This document shows positions 16,534-64,000 of a stretch of DNA of 64,000 nt, piece after piece. A program made the translations under genes and the position numbers. Source of the DNA: Candidatus Omnitrophota bacterium (GTDB lineage: Bacteria > Omnitrophota > Gorgyraeia > 2-01-FULL-45-10). The stretch is from NCBI GenBank assembly GCA_030695905.1, contig JAUYOL010000015.1, positions 8,518-72,517 on the forward strand. The letters run 5' to 3'. The first letter of the stretch is position 1, and each line of letters begins with the position of its first letter. The notes beneath the pieces were generated by a model. It saw nothing but the letters and a program-made list of their open reading frames with translations. It was not told the DNA's origin and searched no databases.

Positions 16534-16555
16534 GATAGGCCGGGAGGGTAGAAAA

Positions 16556-17539: not shown

Positions 17540-17548
17540 CGCCGCAAA

Positions 17549-22560: not shown

Positions 22561-22563
22561 GTG

Positions 22564-22638: not shown

Positions 22639-22646
22639 AGGGTATT

Positions 22647-32425: not shown

Positions 32426-32427
32426 CT

Positions 32428-37677: not shown

Positions 37678-37685
37678 AGGCTTAA

Positions 37686-39051: not shown

Positions 39052-39080
39052 TTGCGAAATTGGTTTGAGTGTAATATAAT
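39052..39080 (+). promoter_or_regulatory. Sigma70-like promoter: TTGCGA, a 17-bp spacer, then TATAAT.
   Basis: The -10 is at 39075-39080. It implies the CDS starts at the ATG at 39097, not at 39052. Confidence 0.35.
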
Positions 39081-39096
39081 CTATAGCCTATTTAAT

Positions 39097-40593: not shown

Positions 40594-40595
40594 AT

Positions 40596-41519: not shown

Positions 41520-41522
41520 AAT

Positions 41523-42506: not shown

Positions 42507-42510
42507 TAAG

Positions 42511-43567: not shown

Positions 43568-43582
43568 TTCGGAGAAATATAT

Positions 43583-47056: not shown

Positions 47057-47064
47057 AAACTAAA

Positions 47065-48231: not shown

Positions 48232-48237
48232 CTTAGG

Positions 48238-49753: not shown

Positions 49754-49764
49754 AAGTATATCCG

Positions 49765-50232
49765 ATGCCCTCGAAACTCGACAAAGTAATAATAGGTTTA
49801 ATTTCACGGGACATGCCTTTAACAAAAAAGCCATTTAGGGATTTGGCCGCCTCACTTGGTATTGATGAGGGTCTTTTGCTCGAAAGGATACGATCGTTTA
49901 AAAAAAACGGGCTCATGCGCAAGTTCGCAGCGATCCTTAACCACAAAAAAATAGGTTTTCGGTATAATGCGATGGTGGTCTGGAATGTCCCGCAAAAATT
50001 TGTTGATAAGGCGGGCAGGGCAATGGCTTCATTTGACGAAGTAAGCCATTGTTATCAGAGGGAAAAAAGAAATGGCTGGAATTATAATTTGTATTCCATG
50101 ATACATGGCAGGACCAAGGAAGAAGTTTTCAGCGCAGTTAAAAAAATATCTGTCAGATTAGGGGGAAATTTTGAGCATAAAGCCTTGTTTTCATTTAAAG
50201 AAGAAAAGAAGACGGGAGCCAAATATTTATAA
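49765..50232 (+). CDS. Siroheme decarboxylase subunit (AhbB/AhbA), paralog of the preceding gene.
   Basis: Same architecture (LISRDMPLTKKPFRDLAASLGIDE...). It forms a tandem pair with the gene at 49277. Confidence 0.65.
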   Translation: MPSKLDKVIIGLISRDMPLTKKPFRDLAASLGIDEGLLLERIRSFKKNGLMRKFAAILNHKKIGFRYNAMVVWNVPQKFVDKAGRAMASFDEVSHCYQREKRNGWNYNLYSMIHGRTKEEVFSAVKKISVRLGGNFEHKALFSFKEEKKTGAKYL

Positions 50233-50239
50233 ATATTGC

Positions 50240-50267
50240 TTGACGTTTTTTAGAAATATGCTACAAT
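50240..50267 (+). promoter_or_regulatory. Sigma70-like promoter: TTGACG, a 16-bp spacer, then TACAAT, upstream of the octaheme cytochrome gene.
   Basis: Same hexamers as the promoter at 12465. The ATG at 50284 would give a leader of about 10 nt. Confidence 0.4.
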
Positions 50268-50283
50268 TCTTTACAAAATAATT

Positions 50284-51072
50284 ATGAAAAATTGGAATAG
50301 ATATATATTTATCTTTTGCACAGCCGTGGTATTTGGAACAGCCGCCGTAAGTTATTGCGCCGCCCGATCAGAAGGTGATGCTGTCGAGCAGCCAGGCAAG
50401 ATTGCCGGCGCGACATATGTGGGCATGGAAACATGCGCCATGTGTCATGAAAAGATAGCGAAAAATTTTAAGAGATCCGACCATGCGCGTATAGTCGTCG
50501 CTTCCAAAGCTAAGGAAGGGCAAGCGTGCGAGACTTGTCATGGGCCGGGCAGCCTGCATGCCGATGCCCAGACAAAGGCCGAGAAGCACGCCACCATAAT
50601 TAATCCTAAGAAAACCCCCGAAACTTGTTATCAGTGTCATATGGATAAAAAAGCCTCTTTCAACCTGCAATATCACCATCCTGTGCCCGAAGGTAAAATG
50701 AGCTGTGCTGATTGCCACGATCCGCACGGAGAAGATGCCATCAGGCCGAACACAAATCGGTCTCTTTCACCCAAGAATGCCGTATGCGCCAAGTGTCATA
50801 AGGACCAGACGATGGTTTTTGCTTACGAACATGATGCGTTGAGAGAAGGCTGTACGACATGCCATGATGTGCATGGCTCGATAAATGATAAGATGCTTGT
50901 AGAAAGAGATGCTACCCTCTGCCTAAAGTGCCATTTCCAGGCGAATTTTCCTTCAACAGGTAATATTGGCAATCGAGGGCATGCGACTTCTGTAAATCGC
51001 GGTCCGTGCTGGAGTGGCGGTTGCCATACGGCAGTGCACGGTTCAAATTATAATGACCATCTCAGAATATAG
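50284..51072 (+). CDS. Periplasmic multiheme c-type cytochrome (7 canonical CxxCH plus one CxxxxCH), MtrA/OmaB-like.
   Basis: A signal peptide. CAMCH, CETCH, CYQCH, CADCH, CAKCH, CTTCH, CLKCH, plus CWSGGCH. 262 aa. Confidence 0.8.
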   Translation: MKNWNRYIFIFCTAVVFGTAAVSYCAARSEGDAVEQPGKIAGATYVGMETCAMCHEKIAKNFKRSDHARIVVASKAKEGQACETCHGPGSLHADAQTKAEKHATIINPKKTPETCYQCHMDKKASFNLQYHHPVPEGKMSCADCHDPHGEDAIRPNTNRSLSPKNAVCAKCHKDQTMVFAYEHDALREGCTTCHDVHGSINDKMLVERDATLCLKCHFQANFPSTGNIGNRGHATSVNRGPCWSGGCHTAVHGSNYNDHLRI

Positions 51073-51077
51073 TTAAT

Positions 51078-53144
51078 ATGAAGAAGAAAATAATATCGAT
51101 AGTCTGTATAAATTTTACCTTACCTGTATTACTATGCTCTTCATTGGTTTATGCGGGCGTATCAGAAGCGGGCGGTAATGGCGTAATCTACCCTTCGGTA
51201 TTATCGGTAGTTTCAGTCGGGGACAATGAAAAATTCCAGGAAGATCATTGGATGACGAACAATGTTCAGGGGGGCGTGTCCGATTACAACTATATCAACG
51301 AAGATCAACACGGCGGTTCTATTGTCGCCGACGGAAGGGTGGTCGCGGGCAATAACGACTATCTCTTTAATTTTGACTTAAAAAAAGAGGGGATAGGCAG
51401 CCTTATCTTCGATTTCAAACAGTTCAGGAAATATTATGACGGCACCGGAGGGTTTTTCTCTAACTTTGCGCCCACAGCTGCGTCTCGCTCAACTTATCTC
51501 GAGGCAGACAGAGCGCTTTTTCTGGATATAGGCAATTTTAAGATCGAAGGCACTCTTTCAAAAGAAGAGAACGCAAAATGTATCTTTTTATACGAGCGGG
51601 AGTATAGGCAGGGCACAAAGTCTTTGACAAGCTGGGGCAGTGTGGTCGAAGGCGGGACAACTCGAAATATATTGCCTACTTTCCTCGAAACCGATGAGAT
51701 CGTGGATAAATTTGAGATGAAGATCGAGCATACCACACCAAGCGGTATAGAGGTATCTGCGGAACAAGGGTATGAGAAGGTAAGGGTTGCCAACCAGAAG
51801 GTCAATAACCGGACCTATAATCTGGGTACCGGAGTATTTTCAAGCATCAGGTATAAATACGAAAATCTGAACGCCGATATTTATACAACGATATTGCGCA
51901 TATCTAAGGAGTTGAATGAAAGGGTCTTTTTGTCTATCGCCTTCCTGGAGGACTATAATGTCGGCAAGACAGAAGAAGTTATAACCGATACCTTGGCCCC
52001 CGGACTCGCCTCCACTGCCGAGAACCATCCTTTAAACCCGCAAAAGGTGCGTCAAAATCAGGTTAGCGTCCTTCCTAAGGCGACTATTTTACTATTAGAA
52101 AATTTGACGATGGATGTGGGGCTGAAGTGGGAGTGGATAAAGACGAAGGCTGTTGGAACTTATAATAAGAACAGGGCAACCGCCACCGTAACAGATGAGT
52201 TTGTGGATCTTGAGGTTAAAAAGGATGATAACCATATTGGGGAAACCTTTGGTCTTAAGTACGATGGGATGAGAGACGTAATATTTTACGCGGATGGTGA
52301 ACTCGAACAGCAGCTACGAAACGAAGATGAATCGCAGAGATCCTTCGGTCCTCAACCGGTTGGCACTGATAATTTTTCAAGAGACCAGAATATCCTTAGC
52401 CTTGATTACGATGTCACGTCAGGTTTTAAATGGTACCCTATATCGAAGGTCAATGTTACAGCGGAGTTTAAATATAAACATGGCACGCGGGACTACACAT
52501 TTCTTAGCACCACAAAGGCGGGCGACGTTGTAGGCGGCTACAGGGGTTTTCTTGACGAAATTGAGTACACCTCATACAAGCCTCTCGTTATGTTTAACTG
52601 TAAGCCTTTTAGATGGCTCGCCTGCAATTTTCGTTATGCTTTAGATACAACGGTCTACGGAGTACGGACACCGGCTGCCGAGGCTACCGAAAAAGCTCAA
52701 TACCTGGCGCATATCTATTCCGCGGGAGCCACGCTTACGCCGAAAGATTGCCTTTACATGACATTGTTTTACCAGTACAAACAGGCGTCAACCGAGACAC
52801 AGGCAAATGGTAACGGCGGTTCGGTGGAAAGAATGCCTACATATAACGCGAGTTTCAGGACGTTGAGCGCCTCATGCGGATATTCACCGGTTAAGGATAT
52901 TACACTAAAAGGCGACTACTCGTTCTCCAATGCCGATAACTTTAATGACTTCGTGAATATAGGGTTGCCGCTCGGGCTGGATAACTTTTCACAGGACGCC
53001 TCTATCGGAATTGAAAAAAAGCTCCGCGGCGACTGCTCCGTAGAATTCAAGTATGACTTCACGCAATATCACGAAACCTCTAACGGCGGTATCGATGATT
53101 ACGAAGCGCATCTTTTTTATACCGGATTAAAGATGAAATTTTAG
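51078..53144 (+). CDS. Large outer-membrane beta-barrel protein (688 aa), a candidate porin partner of the upstream cytochrome (MtrB/PioB/OmbB-like).
   Basis: A signal peptide. Abundant Y/G/T/N-rich alternating strands. It ends ..YTGLKMKF (C-terminal Phe). It starts 6 nt after the cytochrome gene. Confidence 0.55.
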   Translation: MKKKIISIVCINFTLPVLLCSSLVYAGVSEAGGNGVIYPSVLSVVSVGDNEKFQEDHWMTNNVQGGVSDYNYINEDQHGGSIVADGRVVAGNNDYLFNFDLKKEGIGSLIFDFKQFRKYYDGTGGFFSNFAPTAASRSTYLEADRALFLDIGNFKIEGTLSKEENAKCIFLYEREYRQGTKSLTSWGSVVEGGTTRNILPTFLETDEIVDKFEMKIEHTTPSGIEVSAEQGYEKVRVANQKVNNRTYNLGTGVFSSIRYKYENLNADIYTTILRISKELNERVFLSIAFLEDYNVGKTEEVITDTLAPGLASTAENHPLNPQKVRQNQVSVLPKATILLLENLTMDVGLKWEWIKTKAVGTYNKNRATATVTDEFVDLEVKKDDNHIGETFGLKYDGMRDVIFYADGELEQQLRNEDESQRSFGPQPVGTDNFSRDQNILSLDYDVTSGFKWYPISKVNVTAEFKYKHGTRDYTFLSTTKAGDVVGGYRGFLDEIEYTSYKPLVMFNCKPFRWLACNFRYALDTTVYGVRTPAAEATEKAQYLAHIYSAGATLTPKDCLYMTLFYQYKQASTETQANGNGGSVERMPTYNASFRTLSASCGYSPVKDITLKGDYSFSNADNFNDFVNIGLPLGLDNFSQDASIGIEKKLRGDCSVEFKYDFTQYHETSNGGIDDYEAHLFYTGLKMKF

Positions 53145-54454
53145 TGAAATCCCGCAATAATGGAAAAAAAAAGTTCAAAAATTCCGCAAACCTTTTTAAA
53201 CTAGCCAAGAAGTTTATTCCAGGAGGAGTAAATAGTCCCGTACGCGCTTTTAAGGCCGTTGGTACAACGCCTCTCTTCATTTCCAGGGGCAAGGGCGCGT
53301 ATGTCTATGATGTGGATGGTAATAAATTCATCGATTATGTCATGTCATGGGGTCCTCTTGTTTTAGGCCATGCCGATGAGAGAGTGGTCGGGCCGGTAGC
53401 CAAGGCTTTAAAGCGAGGCACCAGTTTTGGCGCTCCGACCAAACAAGAAATAGAGTTAGCGCGGTTAGTGACCGACATCTACCCCTCTATTAAAAAAGTC
53501 CGGCTCACTTCTTCCGGGACCGAGGCTGCGATGAGCGCTATCAGGCTTGCTCGCGGATACACCGGCCGTGAGAAGATATTAAAATTCGAAGGCTGTTATC
53601 ACGGCCACTCAGATAGCCTTTTAGTTAAAGCGGGTAGTGGCTTGGCCACTTTTGGGGTTCCTTCCTCTGCAGGCGTGAACAAAAATGTCGCCAGGGACAC
53701 GATTACAATCCCATTCAATAGTATAGAAAAATTCGAAAAAGCTGTCGCGAAGGAAAAAGATAATATCGCCTGCGTTATTGTTGAGCCTATACCGGCAAAT
53801 ATGGGCGTTGTGTTGCCCGGGCCGGGATTTCTTAAAAAGTTAAGACAGGTAACGAAAGAAAGCGGTATCGTCCTGATCTTCGATGAAGTAATAACGGGTT
53901 TCCGCGTGGCCCTGGGTGGGGCGCAGGAGTTTTTAGGGGTATCTCCGGATCTAACCATACTGGGTAAGATTTTGGGAGGCGGCTTTCCCATAGGCGCTTT
54001 TGGCGGTAAGCCCGAGATAATGGATCTTCTATCTCCCGATGGTCCGGTATATCAGGCCGGCACTCTGTCAGGGAATCCCGTGGCTGTCGAGGCAGGTCTT
54101 GCCACCATACGTATTTTAATGAGCAATAAGGTGTATGATAAACTGCGGAATTTGGGGGATGCGCTTGAGTCGGGCTTTCGGCGGATCATCGCACGGCAGG
54201 CGCAGGGTGTAACATTGCAGAGATGTGGTTCTTTGTTCACTCTTTTCTTTACAGAAAAAAAGGAGATATTAAATTATCAGGATGCGTTGGCGTGCGATAC
54301 AGATGCATTCGCGTTATTTTTTCGCGGGATGCTTGAGCGGGGTATATATCTTGCCCCTTCGCAATTCGAGGCAAATTTTATTTCCGCTGCGCACACCCTG
54401 CGCGAGATAGAGAAGACTTTAAAAGCGGCAGAAGCCGCGTTTTTAAAAGAATAA
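53144..54454 (+). CDS. hemL: Glutamate-1-semialdehyde 2,1-aminomutase.
   Basis: IPGGVNSPVRAF; PLP lysine region ..ILGKILGGGFPIGAFGG.. Confidence 0.9.
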   Translation: MKSRNNGKKKFKNSANLFKLAKKFIPGGVNSPVRAFKAVGTTPLFISRGKGAYVYDVDGNKFIDYVMSWGPLVLGHADERVVGPVAKALKRGTSFGAPTKQEIELARLVTDIYPSIKKVRLTSSGTEAAMSAIRLARGYTGREKILKFEGCYHGHSDSLLVKAGSGLATFGVPSSAGVNKNVARDTITIPFNSIEKFEKAVAKEKDNIACVIVEPIPANMGVVLPGPGFLKKLRQVTKESGIVLIFDEVITGFRVALGGAQEFLGVSPDLTILGKILGGGFPIGAFGGKPEIMDLLSPDGPVYQAGTLSGNPVAVEAGLATIRILMSNKVYDKLRNLGDALESGFRRIIARQAQGVTLQRCGSLFTLFFTEKKEILNYQDALACDTDAFALFFRGMLERGIYLAPSQFEANFISAAHTLREIEKTLKAAEAAFLKE

Positions 54455-54495
54455 AATAGACGGTGTCATTTATCATGGTATAATATTCAAAATAT

Positions 54496-54543
54496 CAGGC
54501 CGGGGCTGTGCAAGTAGATATCGACTATACCAGCCCCGGCCTG
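54496..54543 (+). terminator. GC-rich hairpin after hemL (13-bp perfect stem, 22-nt loop, no U-tract). It may act as a terminator or attenuator.
   Basis: caggccggggctg (54496-54508) paired with cagccccggcctg (54531-54543). Confidence 0.3.
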
Positions 54544-54577: not shown

Positions 54578-55114
54578 GTGCGTAAATTGTTTTTTTGGAT
54601 AGTAGTGATGTCGGTTTTTTGTGCGATTGGTTATGTCTGGGCAGAAGGGCCTCATAAATATGTGGGAGTGAAGAAGTGTGCGATGTGTCACAAATCCGAA
54701 TCAAAGGGGAACCAGTATGGCCAATGGCTTGCTTCTGCGCACGCCAAGGCCTATGAAAGGCTCGCAAGCCCCGAGGCGCTGGAATCGGCTAAGAAGAAAG
54801 GTATCGCGGGTAACCCGCAGGAAGCCCCCCAATGTGTAAAATGCCACGTTACCGGTTATGGCGAAGACACCAGCCTGTTTGCCGAAAGTTTTGTAAAGAC
54901 GGATGGTGTCCAGTGCGAGACTTGCCATGGAGCGGGAAGCGACTACTTGAGCTTAAGCGTGATGAAGGACAGGGCAAAGGCCATAGCGGCAGGCCTTATT
55001 ATTCCGACTAAGGAGCTATGTGTCAAATGTCATAACCCGGAGAGCCCGAATTATAAAGAATTTAATTACGACGAATATGTTAAAAGGATAGCTCATCCGA
55101 GGCCGAAAGAATAA
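54578..55114 (+). CDS. Periplasmic tetraheme c-type cytochrome.
   Basis: GTG start with RBS aaggggagg. A signal peptide. CAMCH, CVKCH, CETCH, CVKCH. Confidence 0.8.
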   Translation: MRKLFFWIVVMSVFCAIGYVWAEGPHKYVGVKKCAMCHKSESKGNQYGQWLASAHAKAYERLASPEALESAKKKGIAGNPQEAPQCVKCHVTGYGEDTSLFAESFVKTDGVQCETCHGAGSDYLSLSVMKDRAKAIAAGLIIPTKELCVKCHNPESPNYKEFNYDEYVKRIAHPRPKE

Positions 55115-55125
55115 AGAATAAAAAT

Positions 55126-56265
55126 ATGTCTTTAAAGCAGACCAGGGTCTGGAAGTTTTTTTCTTCGATAAAGCTGGCCATATGGTTACTCGCTATAATC
55201 GCCGCGCTTTCTTTGCTGGGCACATTTATCCCGCAAAATCAGGAAGCCTCCTTTTACATCGATAAATATGGACATTCTGGGTATAGGGCCTTGCTGGAGA
55301 CCGGCCTAACCGACGTCTATTCTTCTTTCTGGTTTGTACTTCTCCTGGTGCTTTTCTCAATAAACCTGATCGTGTGTCTTATAAACAGGATCTCCCTTAA
55401 GATGCGCATGCTGGGGTCTATACTATCCCACGCCAGTATCCTGATAATATTGATAGGTGCTCTTATAGGCATATTCTTCGGCCAAAAAGGGCTTGTAAAA
55501 ATAAGCGACGGTGAAGAGGTGAGTTCTTTTACCACCCAGGATAAAAAGCGTGTTGACCTGGGGTTTTCGGTAAGGCTTGATAAATTTATCTATAGCGAGC
55601 ACATCGACCCGAAAGAAAAATTATTAGTTTGTCCCGTTAAAAATACCGTCTCTAATGGGGCTGATTCCCCGCAAAGTGATGCATGCTGCAGTAAAGATAG
55701 CCCTCAAAGTTCCGGCAAGAACCAGGGTCTTATAGCGGAGATCCCTACTGAAATAGGCGTAGAGCATGATATTGCGGACACTGGGTATAAGATAAAGATT
55801 CTGCGTTACATCCCTGATTTTGCTATAGATACTGTCACGAAAGTAGCAGCGAGCCGATCGGCTAAGGCAAATAATCCCGCGATACAGGTTCAACTTAATG
55901 ATAAGGCCGGTCAAGTCTCCACATTCTGGGTATTTGCCCGCTTTCCCGACATGCATCAGAAGATGGACCAAAGGTTTAAATTCACATATCATTGGATCGG
56001 CCGTCGGCCGAAAGATTTTATCAGCAAAGTTACCATATTGAAGGCCGGCAAGGAGATTATAACTAAAGATATACGCGTAAATGAACCGCTTCGTTTCGGC
56101 GGATATACTTTTTTTCAGTTCAGTTACGATGCCGAAGATCTTAAGTGGTCGGTCCTTCAGGTAGTTAAAGATCCCGGCGTGGGTGTGGTTTACGCCGGAT
56201 TTATTATGCTCATAGCGGGTCTCATTATCATATTCTATGTCAATCCGCTAACCAGGGGGAGATAA
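55126..56265 (+). CDS. resB: Cytochrome c biogenesis protein ResB/CcsB (system II).
   Basis: The N-terminus ..VWKFFSSIKLAIWLLAIIAALSLLGTFIPQ.. is the classic ResB. A large periplasmic domain and a C-terminal TM. Confidence 0.8.
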   Translation: MSLKQTRVWKFFSSIKLAIWLLAIIAALSLLGTFIPQNQEASFYIDKYGHSGYRALLETGLTDVYSSFWFVLLLVLFSINLIVCLINRISLKMRMLGSILSHASILIILIGALIGIFFGQKGLVKISDGEEVSSFTTQDKKRVDLGFSVRLDKFIYSEHIDPKEKLLVCPVKNTVSNGADSPQSDACCSKDSPQSSGKNQGLIAEIPTEIGVEHDIADTGYKIKILRYIPDFAIDTVTKVAASRSAKANNPAIQVQLNDKAGQVSTFWVFARFPDMHQKMDQRFKFTYHWIGRRPKDFISKVTILKAGKEIITKDIRVNEPLRFGGYTFFQFSYDAEDLKWSVLQVVKDPGVGVVYAGFIMLIAGLIIIFYVNPLTRGR

Positions 56266-56268
56266 GAG

Positions 56269-57042
56269 ATGTCGGCCATGTATATTAATTTCAGTTTCGC
56301 GGTATTTTTTTTAGCCATGATTTTATATGCGGCAGGGCTCTTGTTCAAAAATAAGGCGCTCCCGTTGTTAGCAAAATCTCTCATGGCCTGCGGTATCCTC
56401 AGCCTTTCACTATATATAGGTATCCGCTGGCAGGTTGCCGGCAGGCCGCCATTCAGTAATATGTTTGAATCGCTGGTCGTGCTCAGCTGGGCTATCGCCA
56501 TTACTTCTGTTTTTATCGATATAAAATACAGGATTAAGAATATTGCGGCATTGACGGCTTTGATGAGCTTGCTGGCGATAGGATATGCTTCGTTATTAGA
56601 TAAAGAAATAGTCCCCCTCCTGCCTGCTTTGAAAAGCAACTGGCTTTCCATCCATGTCTTGACCTGCTTCATCGGATATGCTGCTTTAACCGTAGCTTTT
56701 GTTTCAAGCGCCGTGCTTTTGTGCAGGAAAAAAGAGGATATAAGTCTGGATATTGTAAGTTACAAGATGATAACATTCGGATTTTTATTCCTTACACTGG
56801 GCATCATCAGCGGCGCCATATGGGCGAATTCTGCGTGGGGCACTTACTGGAGCTGGGATCCTAAAGAAACATGGTCTTTGATTACCTGGTTTGTCTACGC
56901 CATCTATTTACATATCCGTCTGACGAAAGGATGGAAGGGAAAGCCAGCGGCCTGGCTATCGGTGGCGGGGTTCCTGGCAATGCTCTTTACCTATTTCGGC
57001 GTAAATTATCTATTGCCGGGTTTACATAGTTACTCGGGTTAA
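56269..57042 (+). CDS. ccsA: Cytochrome c assembly protein CcsA/ResC (system II heme lyase).
   Basis: WWD domain WGTYWSWDPKETWSL, and conserved His residues. Confidence 0.85.
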   Translation: MSAMYINFSFAVFFLAMILYAAGLLFKNKALPLLAKSLMACGILSLSLYIGIRWQVAGRPPFSNMFESLVVLSWAIAITSVFIDIKYRIKNIAALTALMSLLAIGYASLLDKEIVPLLPALKSNWLSIHVLTCFIGYAALTVAFVSSAVLLCRKKEDISLDIVSYKMITFGFLFLTLGIISGAIWANSAWGTYWSWDPKETWSLITWFVYAIYLHIRLTKGWKGKPAAWLSVAGFLAMLFTYFGVNYLLPGLHSYSG

Positions 57043-57045
57043 TAC

Positions 57046-57486
57046 ATGGTACAGAAAAAAATTACCAGACGTGAATTTATAAATTACATTTTAGGCGGAT
57101 CCCTTTTGGGCCTGGCGGCAAGCGCCGCGTACTCGATATTCCGTTACATAACACCCCCCGAAGGCACAGAGACCGCAGTTTCGAGCGCAGTAGCGGGCCG
57201 AAAAGGAGAATTGGCTCCCAATTCCGGCAAAATATTTAAATTCGGGGATAAGCCCGGTATATTGATAAATACTTTAGGCGGTGAATTATTAGCCTTTAAT
57301 GCCGTTTGCACTCATCTAAACTGCACCGTCCAGTATGATCCGCAGGCGGCTTGTATCTGGTGCGCGTGCCATAACGGGCGTTTCGACCTGAACGGCAAGG
57401 TGATCTCCGGCCCACCGCCCCGTCCTCTGGAAAAATACGATGTTAATATAAGGGGGGATGATATTGTCGTTTCAAAAAATATATAA
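57046..57486 (+). CDS. Rieske [2Fe-2S] subunit of a cytochrome bc-type complex.
   Basis: Tat signal TRREFI. Box I CTHLNC and box II CACHNGRF. Confidence 0.85.
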   Translation: MVQKKITRREFINYILGGSLLGLAASAAYSIFRYITPPEGTETAVSSAVAGRKGELAPNSGKIFKFGDKPGILINTLGGELLAFNAVCTHLNCTVQYDPQAACIWCACHNGRFDLNGKVISGPPPRPLEKYDVNIRGDDIVVSKNI

Positions 57487-58540
57487 TTGGTTTGATGAGA
57501 GATACCAGATCTCCGGCGTCAGGGATTTTCTCGCGAAAAAGACCGTGCCCGTACATAAGCATTTCGTATGGTATTATTTCGGCGGCATAACGCTGTTTCT
57601 ATTTCTGGTTCAGGTTGTGACAGGAGTGCTCCTGCTTTTTTACTACAAGCCAACCGCCTCCGAGGCGTTTGAGTCTGTAAAATTCATAATGACCAAAGTT
57701 GAATTTGGATGGCTTATACGTTCCATCCATTCCTGGAGCGCTAATCTGATGGTTTTTTCGGCGTTTGTGCATCTCTTTTCTACATTTTTTATGAAATCAT
57801 ACAGGCCGCCGCGTGAGGTGACATGGGTCACGGGCGCATTCCTGTTTTTTATTGCAATGGGACTGGGATTTACAGGGTATTTGCTGCCATGGAACGAGCT
57901 TTCATTTTTTGCCACCAAGGTCGGCACCCAGATAGCCGGTTCGGTACCGGTAGTGGGATCATACCTTCGGACCGTACTTCGCGGTGGAGAAGAGATATCG
58001 GACGCCACTATAACAAGATTTTTTGCATTGCATGTCATGGTGCTTCCTATTGCTATTGTAGCGATGTTGGGACTGCACCTGGCAATGGTACAGGTTCAGG
58101 GGATGAGCGAACCGCTTTCGGTAGCTAAAAGTCCCGAGAAGAAGAGCATGAAGTTCTTTCCTAATTTTTTTTTGAGAGACATAATCGTTTGGCTATTAAT
58201 ATTTGCCGGGCTTCTTGCTTTAAGTGTTATGTTCCCATGGGAGTTGGGCAAGAAAGCAGATCCTTTTGCACCTACCCCGATCGGCATAAAACCTGAATGG
58301 TATTTTGTATGGATGTTCCAGACGTTGAAGATAATCCCGTCCAAGATACTATTATTTGACGGTGAAGTGCTCGGTATTTTAGCGTTTGGCGCGGCCGGAC
58401 TCGCATTGGTTATACTCCCCTTTATGGATATCTGGGCCAGACGTGAAAAGCGCAACCCTTTATTATCGATCTTGGGCGTTTGCGTTATATTATATATGCT
58501 AGTAATGACTTATCTGGCGTACTTCGGTCCGCAAAAGTGA
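57458..58540 (+). CDS. Cytochrome b subunit (fused b6/subunit-IV type) of a bc complex.
   Basis: ..WYYFGGITLFLFLVQVVTGVLL.., heme-ligand His residues in helices B and D, and ..PEWYF.. 360 aa. Confidence 0.85.
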   Translation: MILSFQKIYNWFDERYQISGVRDFLAKKTVPVHKHFVWYYFGGITLFLFLVQVVTGVLLLFYYKPTASEAFESVKFIMTKVEFGWLIRSIHSWSANLMVFSAFVHLFSTFFMKSYRPPREVTWVTGAFLFFIAMGLGFTGYLLPWNELSFFATKVGTQIAGSVPVVGSYLRTVLRGGEEISDATITRFFALHVMVLPIAIVAMLGLHLAMVQVQGMSEPLSVAKSPEKKSMKFFPNFFLRDIIVWLLIFAGLLALSVMFPWELGKKADPFAPTPIGIKPEWYFVWMFQTLKIIPSKILLFDGEVLGILAFGAAGLALVILPFMDIWARREKRNPLLSILGVCVILYMLVMTYLAYFGPQK

Positions 58541-59796
58541 TGAGGGCATTAATGTATAAAAAACTTATATTCATATTCATTATCGTTTTAGCGGCGTCTT
58601 TCGTTGTAAAGTCCGAGGCGGCGGCAAAGGATTATTGTATCGAATGCCACAAGTCATTAGAGGCAAGTGCGAAAGAGCCTACAGACAAGATTGAAGGGGA
58701 TGTTCATTTCAAACGCGGCCTTTCATGTTCCGACTGTCATGGTGGTGACTCCACAAAAGAGGATTTTACGGAGGCAAAAGATACAGGCAAAGGGTTTATC
58801 GGAAAGCCGAAGAGAAACGATATCCCTTTATTCTGTGGCAAGTGCCATGCCGACCCCGCGTATATGCGAAAGTTCAATCCAAACATCCAGACAGACCAGC
58901 TTGCAAAATATAATGAAAGCCAACACGGAAAATTGAATGCCCAGGGTGATCAGAAAGTCGCTGTTTGCGTAAGCTGTCACGACGTTCACGGAATAAGAGA
59001 GAAGAATGATCCTTTGTCACCGATATTCATAACGAACGCGCCGAAACGCTGTGCGTCTTGCCATGCCGATAAAGAATACATGAAAGAATATAGTATACCG
59101 ACGAACCAGATGGAGGAATACGAGCAGGGCGTTCATGGGGAAGCGCTGCTGAAGAAAGGCGATCGCGGCGCACCCGCCTGCCATAGTTGTCACGGTTCTC
59201 ATGACGCGGCACTGCCTCGGGCTATCGCTGTCGGCAATATCTGTGCCCAGTGCCATTCGCTGACACGGGACCTTTTCGCAAAAAGCCCGCACAAAGCGGC
59301 TCATGATAAGCTGGGGATACCCGAATGTGAAGCTTGCCACGGAAATCATAAGATCGTCCGCACATCCGATGACATGCTCGGGACAGGCGAAGGAGGCGTG
59401 TGTGTAAAATGCCATAAGGAGGATTCTGCCGGGTACGCCGTAGCCACGCTGATGAAGAAGGTTATATTAGGATTAAAGGGCGATATAGAAGCTTCGCAAG
59501 CTATAGTTGAGGATGCCGAAAAGTACGGCATGGAGGTCTCGGATACAAAATTCTATCTGGATGAGGCAAAAAATTCCCTAACGAAATCACGCACCTATAT
59601 ACATACCTTTTCAAAAGATAGCGTAGACAGAATAGTGAAAGACGGCATAAGTTCAGCAGATAAAGCAAAGGATAAAGGCAAGCTCGCTATAAGTGAGCTT
59701 GGTTTCAGGCGTAAGTGGCTTGCGGTTGTAGTCGGTATAATATTATTGCTGGCATTTGCGGTTTATCTCAAAATCAGGGGGATGGAGAAGAAATAA
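58540..59796 (+). CDS. Nonaheme c-type cytochrome with a C-terminal membrane anchor (the multiheme subunit of the bc complex).
   Basis: 9 CxxCH (CIECH, CSDCH, CGKCH, CVSCH, CASCH, CHSCH, CAQCH, CEACH, CVKCH) and a C-terminal TM (WLAVVVGIILLLAFAVYL). The start is chosen at the ATGA overlap with the cytochrome b stop; the ATG at 58552 is also possible. Confidence 0.75.
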   Translation: MRALMYKKLIFIFIIVLAASFVVKSEAAAKDYCIECHKSLEASAKEPTDKIEGDVHFKRGLSCSDCHGGDSTKEDFTEAKDTGKGFIGKPKRNDIPLFCGKCHADPAYMRKFNPNIQTDQLAKYNESQHGKLNAQGDQKVAVCVSCHDVHGIREKNDPLSPIFITNAPKRCASCHADKEYMKEYSIPTNQMEEYEQGVHGEALLKKGDRGAPACHSCHGSHDAALPRAIAVGNICAQCHSLTRDLFAKSPHKAAHDKLGIPECEACHGNHKIVRTSDDMLGTGEGGVCVKCHKEDSAGYAVATLMKKVILGLKGDIEASQAIVEDAEKYGMEVSDTKFYLDEAKNSLTKSRTYIHTFSKDSVDRIVKDGISSADKAKDKGKLAISELGFRRKWLAVVVGIILLLAFAVYLKIRGMEKK

Positions 59797-59800
59797 GGTA

Positions 59801-61384
59801 ATGAAGAAAAAAATCCTCCTTATAATAGCGGGAATCGCGTTCTTTTTTATTGCCGGTTTTATTTTTTTCTTTAAATTCTCAACCAGCCCCCAATTCTGCA
59901 GATCCTGCCATATAATGAAACCGTATTATGACTCATGGAAGGCCTCCAAACATAATAAAGTGGCCTGCGTGGATTGTCATTATCCCCCAGCGGGCCATAG
60001 GACACTTTTATGGAAGAAATTTCAGGCTATGTCGCAGATAGTAAAATATATAACTCGGACATATTCATCCAGGCCGTTCGCGGAAATTGACGACAGTGCC
60101 TGTTTGAGAGAGGGCTGCCATTCGAAGCGACTGGTGGAAGGTAAGTTGACATTTGGTAATGGGATAAAATTTGACCACAGGCCGCATCTTACACAGCCGC
60201 GGCGGGACAGGCAGCTGCGTTGCGTATCCTGCCATTCGCAGATCATGGTCGGAAAACACCTCGAGGTTACGCTCGATACTTGTTATCTGTGCCATTTTAA
60301 AGGTATGAAGGGCTCGCGAACGCTTGAGCCTATAGGCGGCTGCATCTCCTGCCATGAATTACCGGAAAAACAATTTATGTTGGGGAACATCAAATACAGG
60401 CATAAAGATTTTGTTAGTGAGCATGGCGTCGAATGTCAAAACTGTCATTTGGATGTGATTCAGGGGGATGGCTCCGCTCCGAAAGAGAGGTGCTATGCCT
60501 GTCATAACCAACCGGACAGGCTGGAAAGATATAGCGATACATCGTTCATCCATGAAAATCATATAACCAAACATAGTATAGCGTGTTTTCATTGTCATAC
60601 AGAGATGAAGCACTCCGTGAAGACAGTAGCGAGAACTCAGAAGCTTGATTGTGCAATGTGTCACGTTGACATGCATTCCGGGCAGAAGGATATGTATGAA
60701 GGGCATGGCGGCGAAGAAGTGGGCGAGATGCCGTCCCCAATGTATTTGGCCCGCGTAGATTGTTTGGGATGCCACATAATAGAGACGCATAGAGGCGAAG
60801 AGTCAGACGAGCGCTTCACCGGTAAGACATTTAAGGCCTCCGAAGCGGGATGCATTAAATGCCATGGCCAGAAATATGCGGGTCTCGTGGCCGACTGGAA
60901 AAAAGAATTAAGATTCGCGCTGGAAGTTATCGATGCCCGGCTTAAGACGACACAGGATATGTTGTCGCAGATTTCGCCAAATGCGCCAAATTTCTCATCG
61001 TTGAATAACCTGTATGACGGCGCGCGTCATAATTATGACTTCGTACGTCTTTCGACCGGGATACACAATATATATTACTCCGCAAAATTGCTGGAAAAAG
61101 TAAACGACGACCTGAATAAGTTAACTAATGAAGCAAAGAAGCCTCTTCCCGAGTCGTCCAAAGCCAGCCTGCTGGATGGCAGTTTCTGTGCTACGCTTTG
61201 CCACGCTAAATTAGACGTTAAAATTCCCGAAGAGGTTAAATATAAGGGTAAAGATATGCCCCATAGTATGCATATTGAACAAGTGGGGGCGTGTGTGAAT
61301 TGCCACACCATAGGCCGCCATAAAGAGATGCCGCTTAAGGAAGATCTTTCTATCTGTAACACCTGCCATGAAAAAGGTATATAG
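59801..61384 (+). CDS. NapC/NrfH-type membrane-anchored multiheme c-type cytochrome (about 13 CxxCH plus 1 CxxxCH).
   Basis: An N-terminal TM followed directly by CRSCH, the NapC/NirT family hallmark. 13 canonical CxxCH motifs plus CATLCH. Confidence 0.8.
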   Translation: MKKKILLIIAGIAFFFIAGFIFFFKFSTSPQFCRSCHIMKPYYDSWKASKHNKVACVDCHYPPAGHRTLLWKKFQAMSQIVKYITRTYSSRPFAEIDDSACLREGCHSKRLVEGKLTFGNGIKFDHRPHLTQPRRDRQLRCVSCHSQIMVGKHLEVTLDTCYLCHFKGMKGSRTLEPIGGCISCHELPEKQFMLGNIKYRHKDFVSEHGVECQNCHLDVIQGDGSAPKERCYACHNQPDRLERYSDTSFIHENHITKHSIACFHCHTEMKHSVKTVARTQKLDCAMCHVDMHSGQKDMYEGHGGEEVGEMPSPMYLARVDCLGCHIIETHRGEESDERFTGKTFKASEAGCIKCHGQKYAGLVADWKKELRFALEVIDARLKTTQDMLSQISPNAPNFSSLNNLYDGARHNYDFVRLSTGIHNIYYSAKLLEKVNDDLNKLTNEAKKPLPESSKASLLDGSFCATLCHAKLDVKIPEEVKYKGKDMPHSMHIEQVGACVNCHTIGRHKEMPLKEDLSICNTCHEKGI

Positions 61385-61389
61385 CAAGT

Positions 61390-63267
61390 ATGTGCATAGA
61401 TAAATTTAAATTTAGTTGCCCTGCTATATTTTTTTTAATAATGTTTTCATCGCTTTGCGCTGCTTCCGCGATTGAAAATTCCGATTGTTTGGAATGTCAT
61501 GAAGATAGTGTACGCTCCGCTTATAATTTATCCGTCCACCGTAAAAATTTATGCACAAGTTGCCATGCAGATATTACCACGCTGCCGCATTCTGAAAAAG
61601 TAAGCAAACCTGTATGCAATCAATGCCATAGACTCGAAACCGAAATCTATAATTCGAGCGACCATGGCGTAGCTTTAAAGGCCGGCGTAGACGAGGCCGC
61701 TTCCTGCCGTAATTGCCACGGTGAACCGCATTCTATCTTAGACTCCCGTAATAAAGACTCGTCGGTCTATCGGGCAAATATTCCCAAAACCTGTGCCTTG
61801 TGCCACGAAGACCAAAAAAGAATGGCAAAATACGAATTAACGGAGAAGATGCCGTATAGATCTTATTCCGAAACAGTCCACGGTAAGGCATTAATAGAAA
61901 AAGGTTTGATCTCAGCCGCTGTCTGTACCGATTGCCATGGCTCGCATGACCTATATTCCATGGCCAACCCCAAATCAAAAATATACCGGACAAACGTTCC
62001 TTCTACCTGTGGGAAATGCCATGAGAACGTATCGAAGACCTATGAGCGCAGTGTTCATGGAAAATCCGTTTTGGCAGGCCGCAGAGAAGCGCCTGTCTGT
62101 ACCGATTGCCACGGCGAACATAGCATAAAGTCCCACAGCGAACCCTCATCGTCGGTATACCCGACCGCCATATCCGAAAAAACCTGCCCGCGCTGTCACG
62201 CGTCGGAAACCGTCATCAGCAAATACCGGCTTCCGGGCAATATGGTAAAGACATATATGGAGAGTTATCATGGCCTTGCAAGCAAAAGCGGGTCCACGGT
62301 AGTCGCAAACTGCGCAAGCTGCCATGGTGTGCACGACATACTGCCGTCAAGCGACCCCAATTCCTCCGTAAACAAAGCTAACCTGCCCCAGACCTGTGGG
62401 AAATGCCATCCGGGAGCGGGGGCAAGATTAGCGAAGGGTTCCGTGCATATCAATCCTTCGGCAACGAGGGATAGGGCGGTATTCTATGTCACTATTTTTT
62501 ATATCTTCCTGATAATTATGACAATAGGCGGGATGAGTATCTATGTTGGCCTGGATTATTTAAGCAGATTAAGAGAGCATTACAAGAGAGTCCGCTCCGA
62601 AGCTAAAATCATGAGATGGACATTTAATGAACGCCTTCAGCATGGCCTGCTTCTTATAACTTTCACTGTCCTTGCATATACCGGTTTTGCCCTGAGGTTC
62701 TCTGACGCGTGGTGGGCGTTCCCATTCACGGTCGTTAAAGGCGGTTTTGACTGGAGGGGGATATTACACAGATGTATGGCGGTAATATTTTGCCTGCTCT
62801 GTGTTTATCACGCAGGATTTTTAATTTTCACGAAGCGGGGCAAGATTGAATTCAAGGCGTTTCTGCCGAGAATGAAGGATTTTGTGGATTTATATAAAAT
62901 GCTTATGTATAATCTTGGTATCTCCAAAGAAAAGCCAAAATTCGAAAGATTTAATTTTATAGAAAAATCCGAATATTGGGCGCTTATTTGGGGAGCGTTA
63001 ATAATGATCGTAACAGGGCTGCTGCTTACTTTTAACAACTTAGCAATGCGGTATTTGCCGAAATGGCTATTGGATGTTGCGGCGACCATACATTTCTATG
63101 AAGCCCTTCTCGCTACACTGGCTATCCTTATCTGGCATTTATATTTTTCGATATTTTCGCCCGAGCATTATCCGATGAATTGGTCCTGGCTTACCGGGAG
63201 GACCACCGAAGATGAACGCCGGGAGAACGATCCTTCAAAGGATAAAGAAAACAAGGCTGATTCATAA
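61390..63267 (+). CDS. Fusion protein: a periplasmic 11-heme c-type cytochrome domain plus a C-terminal di-heme cytochrome b membrane domain (FdnI/HydC-like), CbcL-like.
   Basis: A signal peptide. 11 CxxCH in aa 30-340. Then 5 TM with RWTFNERLQHG (the FdnI/PhsC/HyaC-type motif) and conserved His residues. Confidence 0.75.
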   Translation: MCIDKFKFSCPAIFFLIMFSSLCAASAIENSDCLECHEDSVRSAYNLSVHRKNLCTSCHADITTLPHSEKVSKPVCNQCHRLETEIYNSSDHGVALKAGVDEAASCRNCHGEPHSILDSRNKDSSVYRANIPKTCALCHEDQKRMAKYELTEKMPYRSYSETVHGKALIEKGLISAAVCTDCHGSHDLYSMANPKSKIYRTNVPSTCGKCHENVSKTYERSVHGKSVLAGRREAPVCTDCHGEHSIKSHSEPSSSVYPTAISEKTCPRCHASETVISKYRLPGNMVKTYMESYHGLASKSGSTVVANCASCHGVHDILPSSDPNSSVNKANLPQTCGKCHPGAGARLAKGSVHINPSATRDRAVFYVTIFYIFLIIMTIGGMSIYVGLDYLSRLREHYKRVRSEAKIMRWTFNERLQHGLLLITFTVLAYTGFALRFSDAWWAFPFTVVKGGFDWRGILHRCMAVIFCLLCVYHAGFLIFTKRGKIEFKAFLPRMKDFVDLYKMLMYNLGISKEKPKFERFNFIEKSEYWALIWGALIMIVTGLLLTFNNLAMRYLPKWLLDVAATIHFYEALLATLAILIWHLYFSIFSPEHYPMNWSWLTGRTTEDERRENDPSKDKENKADS

Positions 63268-63276
63268 AATTTAAGA

Positions 63277-63462
63277 ATGGAGGTGGTAAGTATGTTTGGT
63301 AATATAGGAATGCCGGAACTATTTGTTATACTTTTAATTTGTCTTTTAGTCTTTGGCGCGGGAAAATTGCCGGAGATTGGCAAGTCATTTGGTAAGGCTA
63401 TCAACGAATTTAAAAAAGGGATGAAAGAAATAGATTCAGACACGAAGAACGTGGGAAAATAA
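63277..63462 (+). CDS. tatA: Twin-arginine translocase subunit TatA/E.
   Basis: MFGNIGMPELFVILLICLLVFGAGKLPEIGKSFGKAI.., 61 aa, and an RBS ggaggtgg. Confidence 0.85.
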   Translation: MEVVSMFGNIGMPELFVILLICLLVFGAGKLPEIGKSFGKAINEFKKGMKEIDSDTKNVGK

Positions 63463-63478: not shown

Positions 63479-64000
63479 ATGGATAAAGATTTAACCTTTG
63501 TAGGGCATCTCGAAGAATTGCGCCGCAGGATAATAGTGTCTTTGATATTTATTACCATAGTCAGTGTCCTCGCGTTTCCTTGCGCTTCAAAGATATTGGC
63601 TATCCTGAAAATTCCGAGCGCGGGCTTTATAGGAAAACTTGTTTTTTTTGATCCTCAAGAGGCCTTTTTAATCCATATTAAAATCGCTTTTTTTGCCGGA
63701 TTAGCGGTATCTATGCCTGTAATATTGTATCAATTATGGGCGTTTATCTCTCCTGCCATAGAAACTAATACAAAAAAAATCGGTTCATTATTTTTATTTT
63801 TTTCCGTAGGAGCATTCGCTTCAGGCGTGTCTTTCGGATTTTTTATATTACTTCCGGCAGCCCTTAAGTTTCTGCTTAGCTTCTCCGGGAACAATCTGGA
63901 GCCGTTAATTTCTGCTTCAAATTATATATCTTTTGTGTTAGGCTTGACTTTAGGGTGCGGGCTTGTTTTTGAAATGCCTGTTTTAAGTTTCATATTATCA
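63479..64000 (+). CDS. tatC: Twin-arginine translocase subunit TatC (partial, runs off the window).
   Basis: ..FVGHLEELRRRIIVSLIFI.. is the TatC N-terminus, followed by TM helices. No stop before position 64000. Confidence 0.8.
   Translation, partial: MDKDLTFVGHLEELRRRIIVSLIFITIVSVLAFPCASKILAILKIPSAGFIGKLVFFDPQEAFLIHIKIAFFAGLAVSMPVILYQLWAFISPAIETNTKKIGSLFLFFSVGAFASGVSFGFFILLPAALKFLLSFSGNNLEPLISASNYISFVLGLTLGCGLVFEMPVLSFILS

Follow-up and report, generated by a model that had tools for sequence, protein, structure and literature searches.

Gene content and layout of the operon

The DNA analysed here is a stretch of 64,000 nucleotides (referred to as the window) from a metagenome-assembled genome (MAG) of a Candidatus Omnitrophota bacterium (contig JAUYOL010000015.1, positions 8,518 to 72,517), and the subject is a cluster of genes for a Rieske/cytochrome b complex and several multiheme c-type cytochromes. 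Positions 54578-63462 of the forward strand hold nine complete, co-directional genes, which encode a tetraheme cytochrome of the c554 family, the cytochrome c biogenesis proteins ResB and CcsA, a Rieske subunit, a cytochrome b, a nonaheme cytochrome, a 15-heme cytochrome of the NrfH type (gene shorthand mhc14), an 11-heme cytochrome fused to a b-type domain (mhc11b) and TatA. All nine are intact and full length in comparison with their homologues. The initial annotation had counted ten genes in this interval; their contiguity and common direction were borne out, but the tenth gene, tatC, begins only at 63479 and continues past the end of the window. The corresponding GenBank entries (MDP3790929-MDP3790939) carry generic labels, namely 'cytochrome c3 family', 'NapC/NirT family', 'cytochrome b/b6 domain-containing' and 'hypothetical'.

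When the most plausible start codons are used, the genes are packed into one tight unit, as had been proposed. The c554-like gene and resB are separated by 11 nt, resB and ccsA as well as ccsA and the Rieske gene by 3 nt each, the nonaheme gene and mhc14 by 4 nt, mhc14 and mhc11b by 5 nt, and mhc11b and tatA by 9 nt. The Rieske and cytochrome b genes overlap by 29 nt, and the stop codon of cytochrome b overlaps the start codon of the nonaheme gene (TGATG); these start/stop overlaps imply translational coupling. The earlier statement that all gaps measure 12 nt or less describes the tight packing well but misses the largest gap, 16 nt between tatA and tatC. Terminators that could split the genes into separate units were found in none of the intergenic gaps inside the operon, all terminator-like matches lying within coding sequence, and the multiheme reading frames are intact. 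A motif scan yields 39 c-heme sites for the operon, one more than the roughly 38 first estimated, together with four b hemes, and the motif CXXCK does not occur in any operon protein.

The sole sizeable gap is the leader of 123 nt preceding the c554-like gene. It contains a promoter-like site (TAGACG-16-TATAAT with an extended -10 TG; 54457..54484, + strand), which is a consensus match only, and just 3' of it a hairpin (54496..54543, + strand) with a perfect, GC-rich stem of 13 bp and no U tract (dG -31.2 kcal/mol, z -4.36). The arm sequence of the hairpin is unique in the window. Located between hemL and the c554-like gene, the hairpin could be either an element of the 5' untranslated region or operator of the operon, or the end of the upstream unit of mtrAB-like genes and hemL. 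The related loci L002, L003 and L081, which are described below, do not have the junction of hemL with a c554-like gene at which its conservation could show. Searches for RNA families (riboswitches, Rfam) and tRNA genes returned nothing in the leader or elsewhere in the window, and the base composition of the window is uniform.

The Rieske/cytochrome b core and its nonaheme subunit

The Rieske 2Fe-2S subunit (57046..57486, + strand) matches PF00355 (5.3e-13) and, more strongly, the iron-sulfur models of the b6f complex (2.8e-21). That its export depends on the Tat pathway had been suggested at the outset and agrees with its twin-arginine signal (TRREFI); both cluster boxes (CTHLNC and CACHNGRF) are present. 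CxCH is followed by the signature residues G and F, a combination that Kao and Hunte connected to a low-potential cluster of about +150 mV (PMC4122944), and a low potential of about this value is predicted for the present protein as well.

The adjacent gene (57458..58540, + strand) encodes a cytochrome b of 360 aa with about seven transmembrane (TM) helices (PF00033, 2.5e-53; PF00032, 1.4e-11), in which cytochrome b6 and subunit IV are joined in a single reading frame, as was recognised from the beginning. The best solved relatives of the first 220 residues are cytochromes b6 (E 4.6e-64), and all four heme-ligand histidines (in RSIHSWSA, FVHLF, FALHVM and LGLHLAM) align to those of cytochrome b6 7r0w_I. 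The C-terminal part is subunit IV-like and carries the Qo motif PEWY (KPEWYF). The cysteine that binds heme cN in the motif CxGG (PMC4122944) is replaced, the corresponding sequence being YYFGG. The substrate of the complex is most likely menaquinol, because a MenA that scores above its curated cutoff is encoded 14 kb upstream, and this assignment fits the predicted low-potential Rieske cluster.

The start codon of the next gene (58540..59796, + strand) lies within the TGATG overlap, and the gene encodes a c-type cytochrome of 418 aa with a signal peptide, nine CXXCH motifs, a heme-free helical stalk of ~100 residues and a C-terminal TM anchor, which confirms its first description as a 9-heme membrane-anchored cytochrome. 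A sequence search against solved structures was uninformative for this protein. For the genomic neighbourhood, 80 loci were collected with the cytochrome b as query, and in 67 of the 75 that had room downstream the Rieske, cytochrome b and nonaheme genes form a contiguous trio. These loci belong to Omnitrophota, Acidobacteriota (Terriglobia, Blastocatellia, Bryobacteraceae), Ignavibacteria, Latescibacteria, Gemmatimonadota and others. In an exhaustive HMMER search (E<=1e-30), the nonaheme family comprised 480 clusters at 50% identity. Exactly nine CXXCH motifs are present in 83 of 86 full-length members and a C-terminal TM helix in 82 of 86. Two methionines, Met109 and Met181, in a repeated context (C..CHAD..YM) are 93% conserved and may give rise to His/Met-ligated hemes. 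Natural fusions were also found in metagenomic sequences, three of them joining the whole cytochrome b (b6 and subunit IV) to the nonaheme protein (P0348, P0355 and P0407) and a fourth joining subunit IV to it (P0309). A further protein of 760 aa (P0291) has 18 CXXCH motifs and apparently contains a doubled multiheme module.

Since the trio is contiguous, the C-terminal anchor is kept and natural fusions exist, the assignment of the nonaheme protein to the Rieske/cytochrome b complex as its dedicated c subunit, in place of cytochrome f or c1, is well supported by these sequence comparisons. The fusions follow the same logic as QcrC of Bacillus. With the cytochrome b6f complex and the b6c complexes of Firmicutes and heliobacteria, the present complex shares the b6-type N-terminal half, the four histidines, the PEWY-containing subunit IV-like half and the Tat-dependent Rieske protein. 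It departs from these complexes in having b6 fused to subunit IV and no heme cN cysteine; menaquinone would be used, and cytochrome f or the diheme cytochrome c is replaced by a nonaheme cytochrome.

The complex had also been compared to the Rieske/cytochrome b complexes of anammox bacteria (Kuste4569-4574 and Kustd1480-1485; PMC12954380). Both have membrane-anchored multiheme c-type subunits, but the similarity proved to be superficial. The anammox complexes contain NAD(P) reductase subunits, heme cN, a split cytochrome b with a subunit IV of five TM helices, an HAO-like octaheme protein and an unusually high-potential Rieske cluster (PMC12954380), and none of these features is present here. 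Domain searches found no NAD(P) oxidoreductase, HAO-like or hexaheme domain in any operon protein. An anammox-type complex was thus rejected, as the NAD(P) reductase subunit and the heme cN cysteine are missing and cytochrome b is fused.

The 15-heme and 11-heme cytochromes

The gene mhc14 (59801..61384, + strand; MDP3790938.1) encodes a membrane-anchored cytochrome of the NrfH/NapC type with 527 aa (TIGR03153, 1e-19). The match to this NrfH model covers model positions 4-136 of 138 and reaches 71 bits, below the cutoff of 134 bits. A single TM helix lies at the N-terminus (residues 5-23 of the 527-aa form, corresponding to residues 20-38 of the 542-aa open reading frame), and the first heme motif is of the form CXXCHxM, CRSCHIM aligning with CTSCHIM of NrfH from D. 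vulgaris. Thirteen CXXCH, one CX4CH and one CX3CH motif are present, and all 15 are invariant in 110 homologues. The NrfH type had been assigned correctly, whereas the heme count of about 14 has to be raised to 15. More than 1000 homologues exist, the family has no name, and its source-named members come from many phyla. Among solved structures, the protein matches NrfH (PDB 2j7a, 5.9e-08) and, with residues 216-420, PDB 6i5b (1.9e-07), which is presumably a multiheme cytochrome related to nitrite-reductase-type enzymes.

Similar to NrfH, CymA and NapC, the N-terminal ~150 aa of the protein contain one TM helix, match the NrfH profile and begin with CXXCHxM. Those proteins have about 160-200 aa and four hemes, in contrast to 527 aa and 15 hemes here, and mhc14 has no NrfA partner. 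A Nrf nitrite-reductase system was rejected, as the operon does not encode an NrfA with CXXCK. A resemblance to ImcH, which had been mentioned in the initial annotation, was not upheld either. ImcH has three N-terminal TM helices, a CX3CH motif beside the TM domain and about seven hemes, whereas mhc14 has one TM helix, and its CX3CH is located at residue 463 near the C-terminus; the protein is NrfH-like instead.

The following gene, mhc11b (61390..63267, + strand; MDP3790939.1), combines a periplasmic 11-heme domain, a linker TM helix and a four-helix diheme b domain similar to FdnI and HydC (PF01292, 3e-15; TIGR01583, 7.7e-17). It had been noted as an 11-heme cytochrome, and the 11 CXXCH motifs are indeed there, but its C-terminal b-type domain had been overlooked. 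All 11 motifs follow the signal peptide and are invariant in 112 homologues, each with a conserved distal histidine. Five TM helices come after the signal peptide, and His418, His460, His474, His568 and His583 are conserved at a level of at least 0.96. In mhc14 as well as in mhc11b, the conserved histidines outside the heme motifs are numerous enough to supply a distal ligand to every heme. The three multiheme cytochromes of the operon are real, as had been proposed. A sequence search of solved structures with the 11-heme protein returned no match.

By its architecture, mhc11b is assigned to the quinone-coupled CbcL/MtoC/MtrH-type cytochromes, and it fits every architectural criterion of this family. 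Zhong and Shi 2018 described the family as having a periplasmic domain with 3-23 CX2CH motifs and a HydC/FdnI-like domain with five or six TM helices (PMC6295460). Their survey lists three Omnitrophica proteins, of which one has 11 hemes, and notes that the genes are often found beside mtrAB or mtoAB (PMC6295460). The published table allows a comparison of heme-motif spacing between mhc11b and OGX07562.1, a protein with the same architecture, and seven of the ten intervals agree within one residue (PMC6295460). The N-terminal multiheme domain, the C-terminal b-type TM domain and the conserved TM histidines are common to the family and mhc11b. Compared by architecture, CbcL of G. sulfurreducens differs in having nine hemes and six TM helices, against 11 hemes and five TM helices here. 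The pairing with a Rieske/cytochrome b complex in one operon is not mentioned in the survey (PMC6295460).

Tetraheme cytochrome, maturation and Tat genes

The first gene of the operon (54578..55114, + strand; MDP3790932.1) encodes a soluble periplasmic tetraheme cytochrome of the c554 family (PF13435, 5.4e-21; PDB 1bvb, 9.2e-11). It starts with GTG after a GGAGG ribosome-binding site, and the protein has a signal peptide ending in VWA/EG and four CXXCH motifs. Two genes for System II cytochrome c biogenesis follow. The ResB/CcsB-like protein (55126..56265, + strand) is a short form of 379 aa with TM segments at both termini (PF05140, 8e-50), and CcsA (56269..57042, + strand), the subunit for heme handling or ligation, carries the Trp-rich heme-handling motif WGTYWSWDPKETW (TIGR03144, 1.6e-78; PF01578, 1.7e-52). 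With 263.9 bits against a cutoff of 187.6 for CcsA, the earlier view that the operon brings its own System II maturation genes is well founded.

TatA (63277..63462, + strand) scores 73.4 bits against the cutoff of 62 for NF011430 and matches PF02416 (8.9e-19). Of TatC (63479..64000, + strand), the N-terminal 173 aa are contained in the window, running beyond its end, and their frame translation matches PF00902 (2e-46). The initial annotation regarded the tat genes as needed for the Rieske subunit. Their linkage in relatives is inconsistent, since they are missing from the cluster in L001-L003 and come after MoeA in L081.

The upstream putative conduit pair and cofactor genes

Upstream of the operon, two genes encode a putative outer-membrane conduit. 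The first (50284..51072, + strand; MDP3790929.1) codes for a periplasmic MtrA/DmsE-like octaheme cytochrome with a signal peptide (TIGR03508, 2.6e-46; GSU2203 family, 3.5e-47). Seven CXXCH motifs and one CX4CH motif were found, giving eight hemes rather than ten, and about 47 c-type hemes when the octaheme protein is counted together with the operon. The protein matches PDB 6r2q_A of the Mtr complex with an E value of 7.3e-32. Against the DmsE model TIGR03508 it reaches 158 bits, below the cutoff of 192 bits, and the match to the GSU2203 family is likewise below cutoff.

The second gene (51078..53144, + strand) encodes a protein of 688 aa that has no Pfam match and ends in a C-terminal Phe. 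Its AlphaFold2 (AF2) model (pLDDT 87.3, pTM 0.77) is a beta-barrel with about 26-28 long strands. Foldseek ranks 6r2q_B first among the matches of the model (E 2.7e-14, TM-scores 0.64/0.67). This chain forms the barrel in the Mtr complex and is taken here to be MtrB; with an identity of 13%, the similarity is at the level of the fold only. A TonB-dependent receptor was considered for this protein and rejected, since TM-scores were about 0.4, no plug domain was matched in Pfam and 6r2q_B was the clear top match. The barrel family comprises 49 proteins, all annotated as hypothetical, and every source-named member is from Omnitrophota. No extracellular cytochrome of the MtrC/OmcA/OmcS type accompanies the pair; the only open reading frames with at least two CXXCH motifs in the 64 kb are the five described here.

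The stop codon of the barrel gene overlaps the start codon of hemL (TAGTG), which encodes a class III aminotransferase of the glutamate-1-semialdehyde aminomutase type (53144..54454, + strand; PF00202, 1e-71) and sits between the conduit genes and the operon. These three genes end a block of cofactor genes (39052-54454, + strand). The block starts with an NAD-binding/DUF2867 protein, MenA, a polyprenyl synthase and SirC, and continues with a truncated CcsA/HemX-like protein (43139-43567), HemA, HemC, CobA-HemD, AhbC, AhbD, AhbA and AhbB, followed by the MtrAB-like pair and HemL. With AhbC, AhbD, AhbA and AhbB, the block encodes the siroheme route to heme b, which needs no O2. Heme O synthase, which would imply a heme-copper oxidase, was rejected as the identity of the UbiA-family gene at 40596-41519; the protein is MenA, scoring 119.9 against a cutoff of 102.15 for TIGR00751. 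From 39052 onwards, genes for menaquinone, anaerobic heme b synthesis and cytochromes thus make up a supercluster of ~25 kb on the + strand.

Genes for the reduction of quinones are located farther upstream in the window. A nuo operon on the minus strand (29520-38640) includes three antiporter-like subunits, NuoH and NuoD by Pfam, and positions 211-2312 encode a fused NuoC/NuoD-like protein of 527 aa and a NuoB-like protein. ETF-QO is encoded at 26057-27766.

Related loci

The relative L081, which is 81% identical, has the order MerR, MtrA-like protein, barrel, c554-like protein, ResB, CcsA, Rieske protein, cytochrome b, nonaheme, 15-heme and 11-heme-b cytochromes. Behind this run of genes come MoeA, TatA, TatC, MobA and an NAD-linked formate dehydrogenase. 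In detail, positions 11952-21863 of L081 encode MoeA, TatA, TatC, MobA, a NuoE-like protein, a NuoF-like/GltD-like fusion of 1003 aa, a NuoG-type formate dehydrogenase alpha subunit of 906 aa, MoaA and MoaC. By its sequence, this would be a soluble NAD(P)-linked formate dehydrogenase adjoining the cytochrome genes, and it is possibly bifurcating. The MtrA-like/barrel pair immediately precedes the c554-like gene in L081 and the Rieske genes in L025, L034, L054 and L076.

The Omnitrophota loci L002 and L003 contain largely the same cytochrome genes in another order, behind hemL. That a similar gene set is kept although reordered argues for a functional linkage of the genes. The hemL that precedes the cluster in these two loci is 68-76% identical to the present one; in L081, hemL is not found at this place. 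Acidobacterial loci encode a decaheme protein, a protein of 700-960 aa ending in an aromatic residue, the trio and a CbcL-type fusion with 9-13 hemes, and they also have an ImcH-like protein with three TM helices and 5-7 hemes. Larger versions surround the trio in other phyla (L004, L006, L011, L013, L019 and L066). A locus of Latescibacteria encodes 19-heme CbcL-type fusions of 893 and 959 aa, a locus of Acidiferrales a 19-heme cytochrome of 723 aa, and Ignavibacteria proteins with 14, 11 and 9 hemes.

It could be argued that the genes are held together by shared cofactor logistics, so that System II, Tat and heme-synthesis genes stand beside unrelated cytochromes which do not form a single pathway. 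The ~25 kb of + strand genes from 39052, which mostly concern heme, quinone and cytochrome maturation, would fit such an arrangement, and so would the tat genes, which in L081 are followed by molybdenum-cofactor and formate dehydrogenase genes and in L001-L003 are not in the cluster. This explanation is nevertheless highly improbable. Largely the same set of cytochromes recurs in L002 and L003 in a different order and in L081 in identical order, the start/stop overlaps imply translational coupling, and the joint action of at least two components, cytochrome b and the nonaheme protein, is proven by the fusions.

Proposed electron pathway and its direction

The cluster is interpreted here, with a probability of roughly 0.6, as a respiratory wire of anaerobic Omnitrophota that would lead from the menaquinone pool to the outer membrane and would contain three quinol modules that differ in their coupling. 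Menaquinone would be reduced by complex I and ETF-QO, whose genes both lie in the window. Oxidation of menaquinol by the Rieske/cytochrome b-nonaheme module would proceed by a Q cycle and contribute to the proton-motive force, and it would need an acceptor above about +150 mV. In analogy to NrfH, the quinol site of the NrfH-type module would be on the periplasmic side and its reaction electroneutral. For the CbcL-type module, the analogy to FdnI suggests a quinone site on the N-side; outward flow through it would cost membrane potential but could reach low-potential acceptors. Geobacter likewise has ImcH and CbcL, which serve acceptors of different potential. The c554-like shuttle would take up the electrons from the three modules and hand them to the MtrAB-like conduit, through which they would reach an oxidant that is extracellular or soluble, for example Fe(III), Mn(IV) or humics. 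A wire from the quinone pool to the periplasm or the exterior had already been proposed for the operon, and this idea gained strength from the upstream octaheme protein (6r2q_A, 7e-32) and the MtrB-fold barrel (TM-score 0.64-0.67).

Electrons may also flow in the opposite direction, a possibility that is regarded as unlikely but serious. Extracellular Fe(II) or another donor would be oxidised at a conduit resembling MtoAB, and the electrons would pass through the c554-like shuttle. From there they would run partly downhill to a terminal oxidase or reductase whose gene lies elsewhere, and partly uphill into the menaquinone pool for the generation of NAD(P)H via complex I, carried by the MtoC-like and NrfH-like cytochromes or by a reversed Rieske/cytochrome b complex. 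The operon pairs a c554-type protein, homologous to PDB 1bvb, with an NrfH-type cytochrome. In Nitrosomonas, electrons enter the quinone pool through c554 paired with cM552, a cytochrome of the NapC/NrfH type. Reverse operation is conceivable for the complex I encoded in the window, and the conduit has no neighbouring extracellular multiheme cytochrome. The lack of such a cytochrome also led Castelle et al. to argue for Fe(II) oxidation by the MtrAB and PetAB cluster of RBG-1 (PMC3903129), and the CbcL family is represented in Fe(II) oxidisers by MtoC members encoded beside mtoAB (PMC6295460).

Outward flow is nevertheless considered roughly twice as likely as inward flow. One reason is the Qo motif, which is PEWY rather than APWY, the motif associated with reverse-running complexes (PMC4122944); PPWY, which is likewise seen in complexes proposed to run backwards, is not present either. 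The presence of quinone-reducing complex I and ETF-QO in the window and of a formate dehydrogenase in L081 points to an organotrophic input of electrons, and the O2-independent Ahb route to heme points to an anaerobe. In addition, the low-potential G-F Rieske protein and MenA are indicative of a low-potential chain, and no oxidase, nitrate reductase or carbon-fixation gene was found in the 64 kb.

Several points speak against a wire to the outer membrane. To our knowledge, known Fe(III) reducers do not use Rieske/cytochrome b complexes in extracellular electron transfer, and most Fe(III) oxides are less positive than the acceptor that a menaquinol Q cycle requires. The conduit genes are separated from the operon by hemL, the promoter-like site and the hairpin, and the 8-heme MtrA-like protein may on its own span the barrel incompletely. 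The 64-kb window encodes no extracellular cytochrome of the MtrC/OmcS type, and MtrAB without such a cytochrome has been taken to speak for Fe(II) oxidation or for soluble acceptors (PMC3903129). The energetics of three gears are drawn by analogy from FdnI, NrfH and Geobacter. Only 16 of the 80 trio loci have an MtrA-like gene within 10 kb, and by this distribution an outer-membrane conduit is not the exclusive partner of the Rieske/cytochrome b-nonaheme complex. Finally, the system is known in Omnitrophota from genes alone.

The rarity of MtrA-like genes near the trio would also be expected if the complex were an ordinary complex III with periplasmic carriers that feed soluble periplasmic reductases encoded elsewhere, for instance reductases of nitrite, selenite/tellurite or sulfur compounds. 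In that case the MtrAB-like pair would be a functionally unlinked neighbour or would serve the uptake or reduction of soluble substrates, as proposed for ExtI of Geobacter. The ext cluster of Geobacter was tied to selenite and tellurite reduction and not to that of Fe(III) oxides (PMC5877670), a Rieske/cytochrome b pair in a nap cluster of Caldithrix was proposed to feed multiheme reductases, and residues 216-420 of mhc14 resemble PDB 6i5b. On the other hand, no catalytic signature was recognised, as the operon proteins have no CXXCK and enough histidines to ligate every heme distally, and a reductase gene is found neither in the present cluster nor in that of L081. Five independent Omnitrophota loci, moreover, have the conduit pair in one unbroken row with the cluster, and in Acidobacteriota the trio is preceded by analogous pairs. 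An ordinary complex III is thus rather improbable as the full explanation, and a wire from the menaquinone pool to the outer membrane is preferred.

Relation to described gene clusters

The closest published description concerns the Zixibacteria genome RBG-1 (Castelle et al. 2013, PMC3903129), which encodes homologues of a decaheme MtrA and of MtrB, several periplasmic and inner-membrane multiheme cytochromes and PetAB, is known only from a MAG and likewise lacks an extracellular cytochrome. RBG-1 belongs to a different phylum and, compared by its published description, differs in having two monoheme cytochromes. A nonaheme subunit, an NrfH-type 15-heme cytochrome, a CbcL-type fusion, ccs genes or a linkage to heme synthesis are not reported in that paper (PMC3903129).

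The extHIJKLMNOPQS cluster, which is conserved in Geobacter (PMC5877670), is similar in that it encodes a porin-like protein, 12-heme and 10-heme cytochromes, the Rieske protein ExtO, the b6-like protein ExtP, a small membrane protein and a 4-heme cytochrome. All matches to the ext equivalog models were below cutoff (ExtM 1e-4, ExtN 2.1e-3, ExtO 1.8e-3, and ExtP with 223.9 bits against a cutoff of 290 for the N-terminal half of cytochrome b). ExtP is split from ExtQ, whereas the corresponding parts are fused here, and ExtI is a phosphate-porin-like channel and not of the MtrB fold. A rhodanese and a selenoprotein cytochrome are also part of the ext cluster, and neither is encoded here.

Dibrova et al. 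2013 are cited as having proposed multiheme cytochromes as acceptors of the Rieske protein in anaerobic bc complexes. A 2026 preprint on porin-multiheme clusters for extracellular electron transfer in peat Acidobacteriota does not mention Rieske/cytochrome b; as the adjacent genes went unmentioned there, the link is under-recognised, though not new. Literature searches for descriptions of multiheme or Rieske proteins in Omnitrophota yielded almost nothing specific. The initial annotation had considered the composition of the operon as not described. This is right only in part and too strong as a claim, since the CbcL/MtoC/MtrH family and the RBG-1 and ext clusters are published. The present work is the first detailed description of such a cluster for Omnitrophota, while the kind of cluster was already known. 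At the level of sequence, it establishes the parts list, the conservation of the parts and the relation of the nonaheme subunit to the complex.

Other genes in the window

The left part of the window carries genes of different character. A protein of 2047 aa (4291-10434) has C-terminal supersandwich and catalytic domains of GH94 (cellobiose/cyclic beta-1,2-glucan phosphorylase-type), and its N-terminal ~1300 residues are without a Pfam match. Two paralogous genes of GH3-family acyl-acid amido synthetases (14512-16167 and 19481-21139) have an epimerase, an alpha/beta hydrolase, an enolase-superfamily enzyme, an MFS transporter and a radical SAM protein as neighbours, and the region 14512-23882 looks like a cluster for small-molecule conjugation or biosynthesis, which would be unusual for bacteria. 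Two proteins, one of 461 aa (13083-14468, minus strand) and one of 241 aa (28790-29515, + strand), have no Pfam match at E<=1e-5.

Possible implications for extracellular electron transfer in Omnitrophota and other phyla

In the paradigm derived from Shewanella and Geobacter, CymA, ImcH and CbcL oxidise quinol without a bc complex. Beyond these two genera, it is largely unknown how the quinone pool is linked to extracellular acceptors or donors and whether energy is conserved in the process. A tentative extension of the present findings is that the b6-type Rieske/cytochrome b complex with its nonaheme subunit represents a distinct class of complex III, found across phyla and specialised for exchange with MtrAB-like conduits of the outer membrane. 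If this were true, the class would be carried by Omnitrophota, Acidobacteriota, Latescibacteria and Ignavibacteria, and quinol oxidation in extracellular respiration would be coupled to a Q cycle, or reverse flow would occur during the oxidation of Fe(II) or electrodes. Should the complex be an ordinary complex III instead, multiheme c subunits would still be the rule for the b6-like clade.

The nonaheme subunit, the 15-heme NrfH-type family and the MtrB-fold barrel of Omnitrophota have gained working names, and the barrel family could become a profile for porin-cytochrome conduits that are missed by sequence searches. Together with its relatives in abundant phyla of soil and groundwater, the cluster is a candidate, open to testing, for extracellular electron transfer that conserves energy or runs in reverse. 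If the proposed pathway is correct, the presence of an NrfH-type 15-heme cytochrome and a CbcL-type module in one operon with the Rieske/cytochrome b complex would constitute a three-gear set of quinol dehydrogenases that adapts to the potential of the acceptor, and some Omnitrophota would be free-living respirers of metals or humics.

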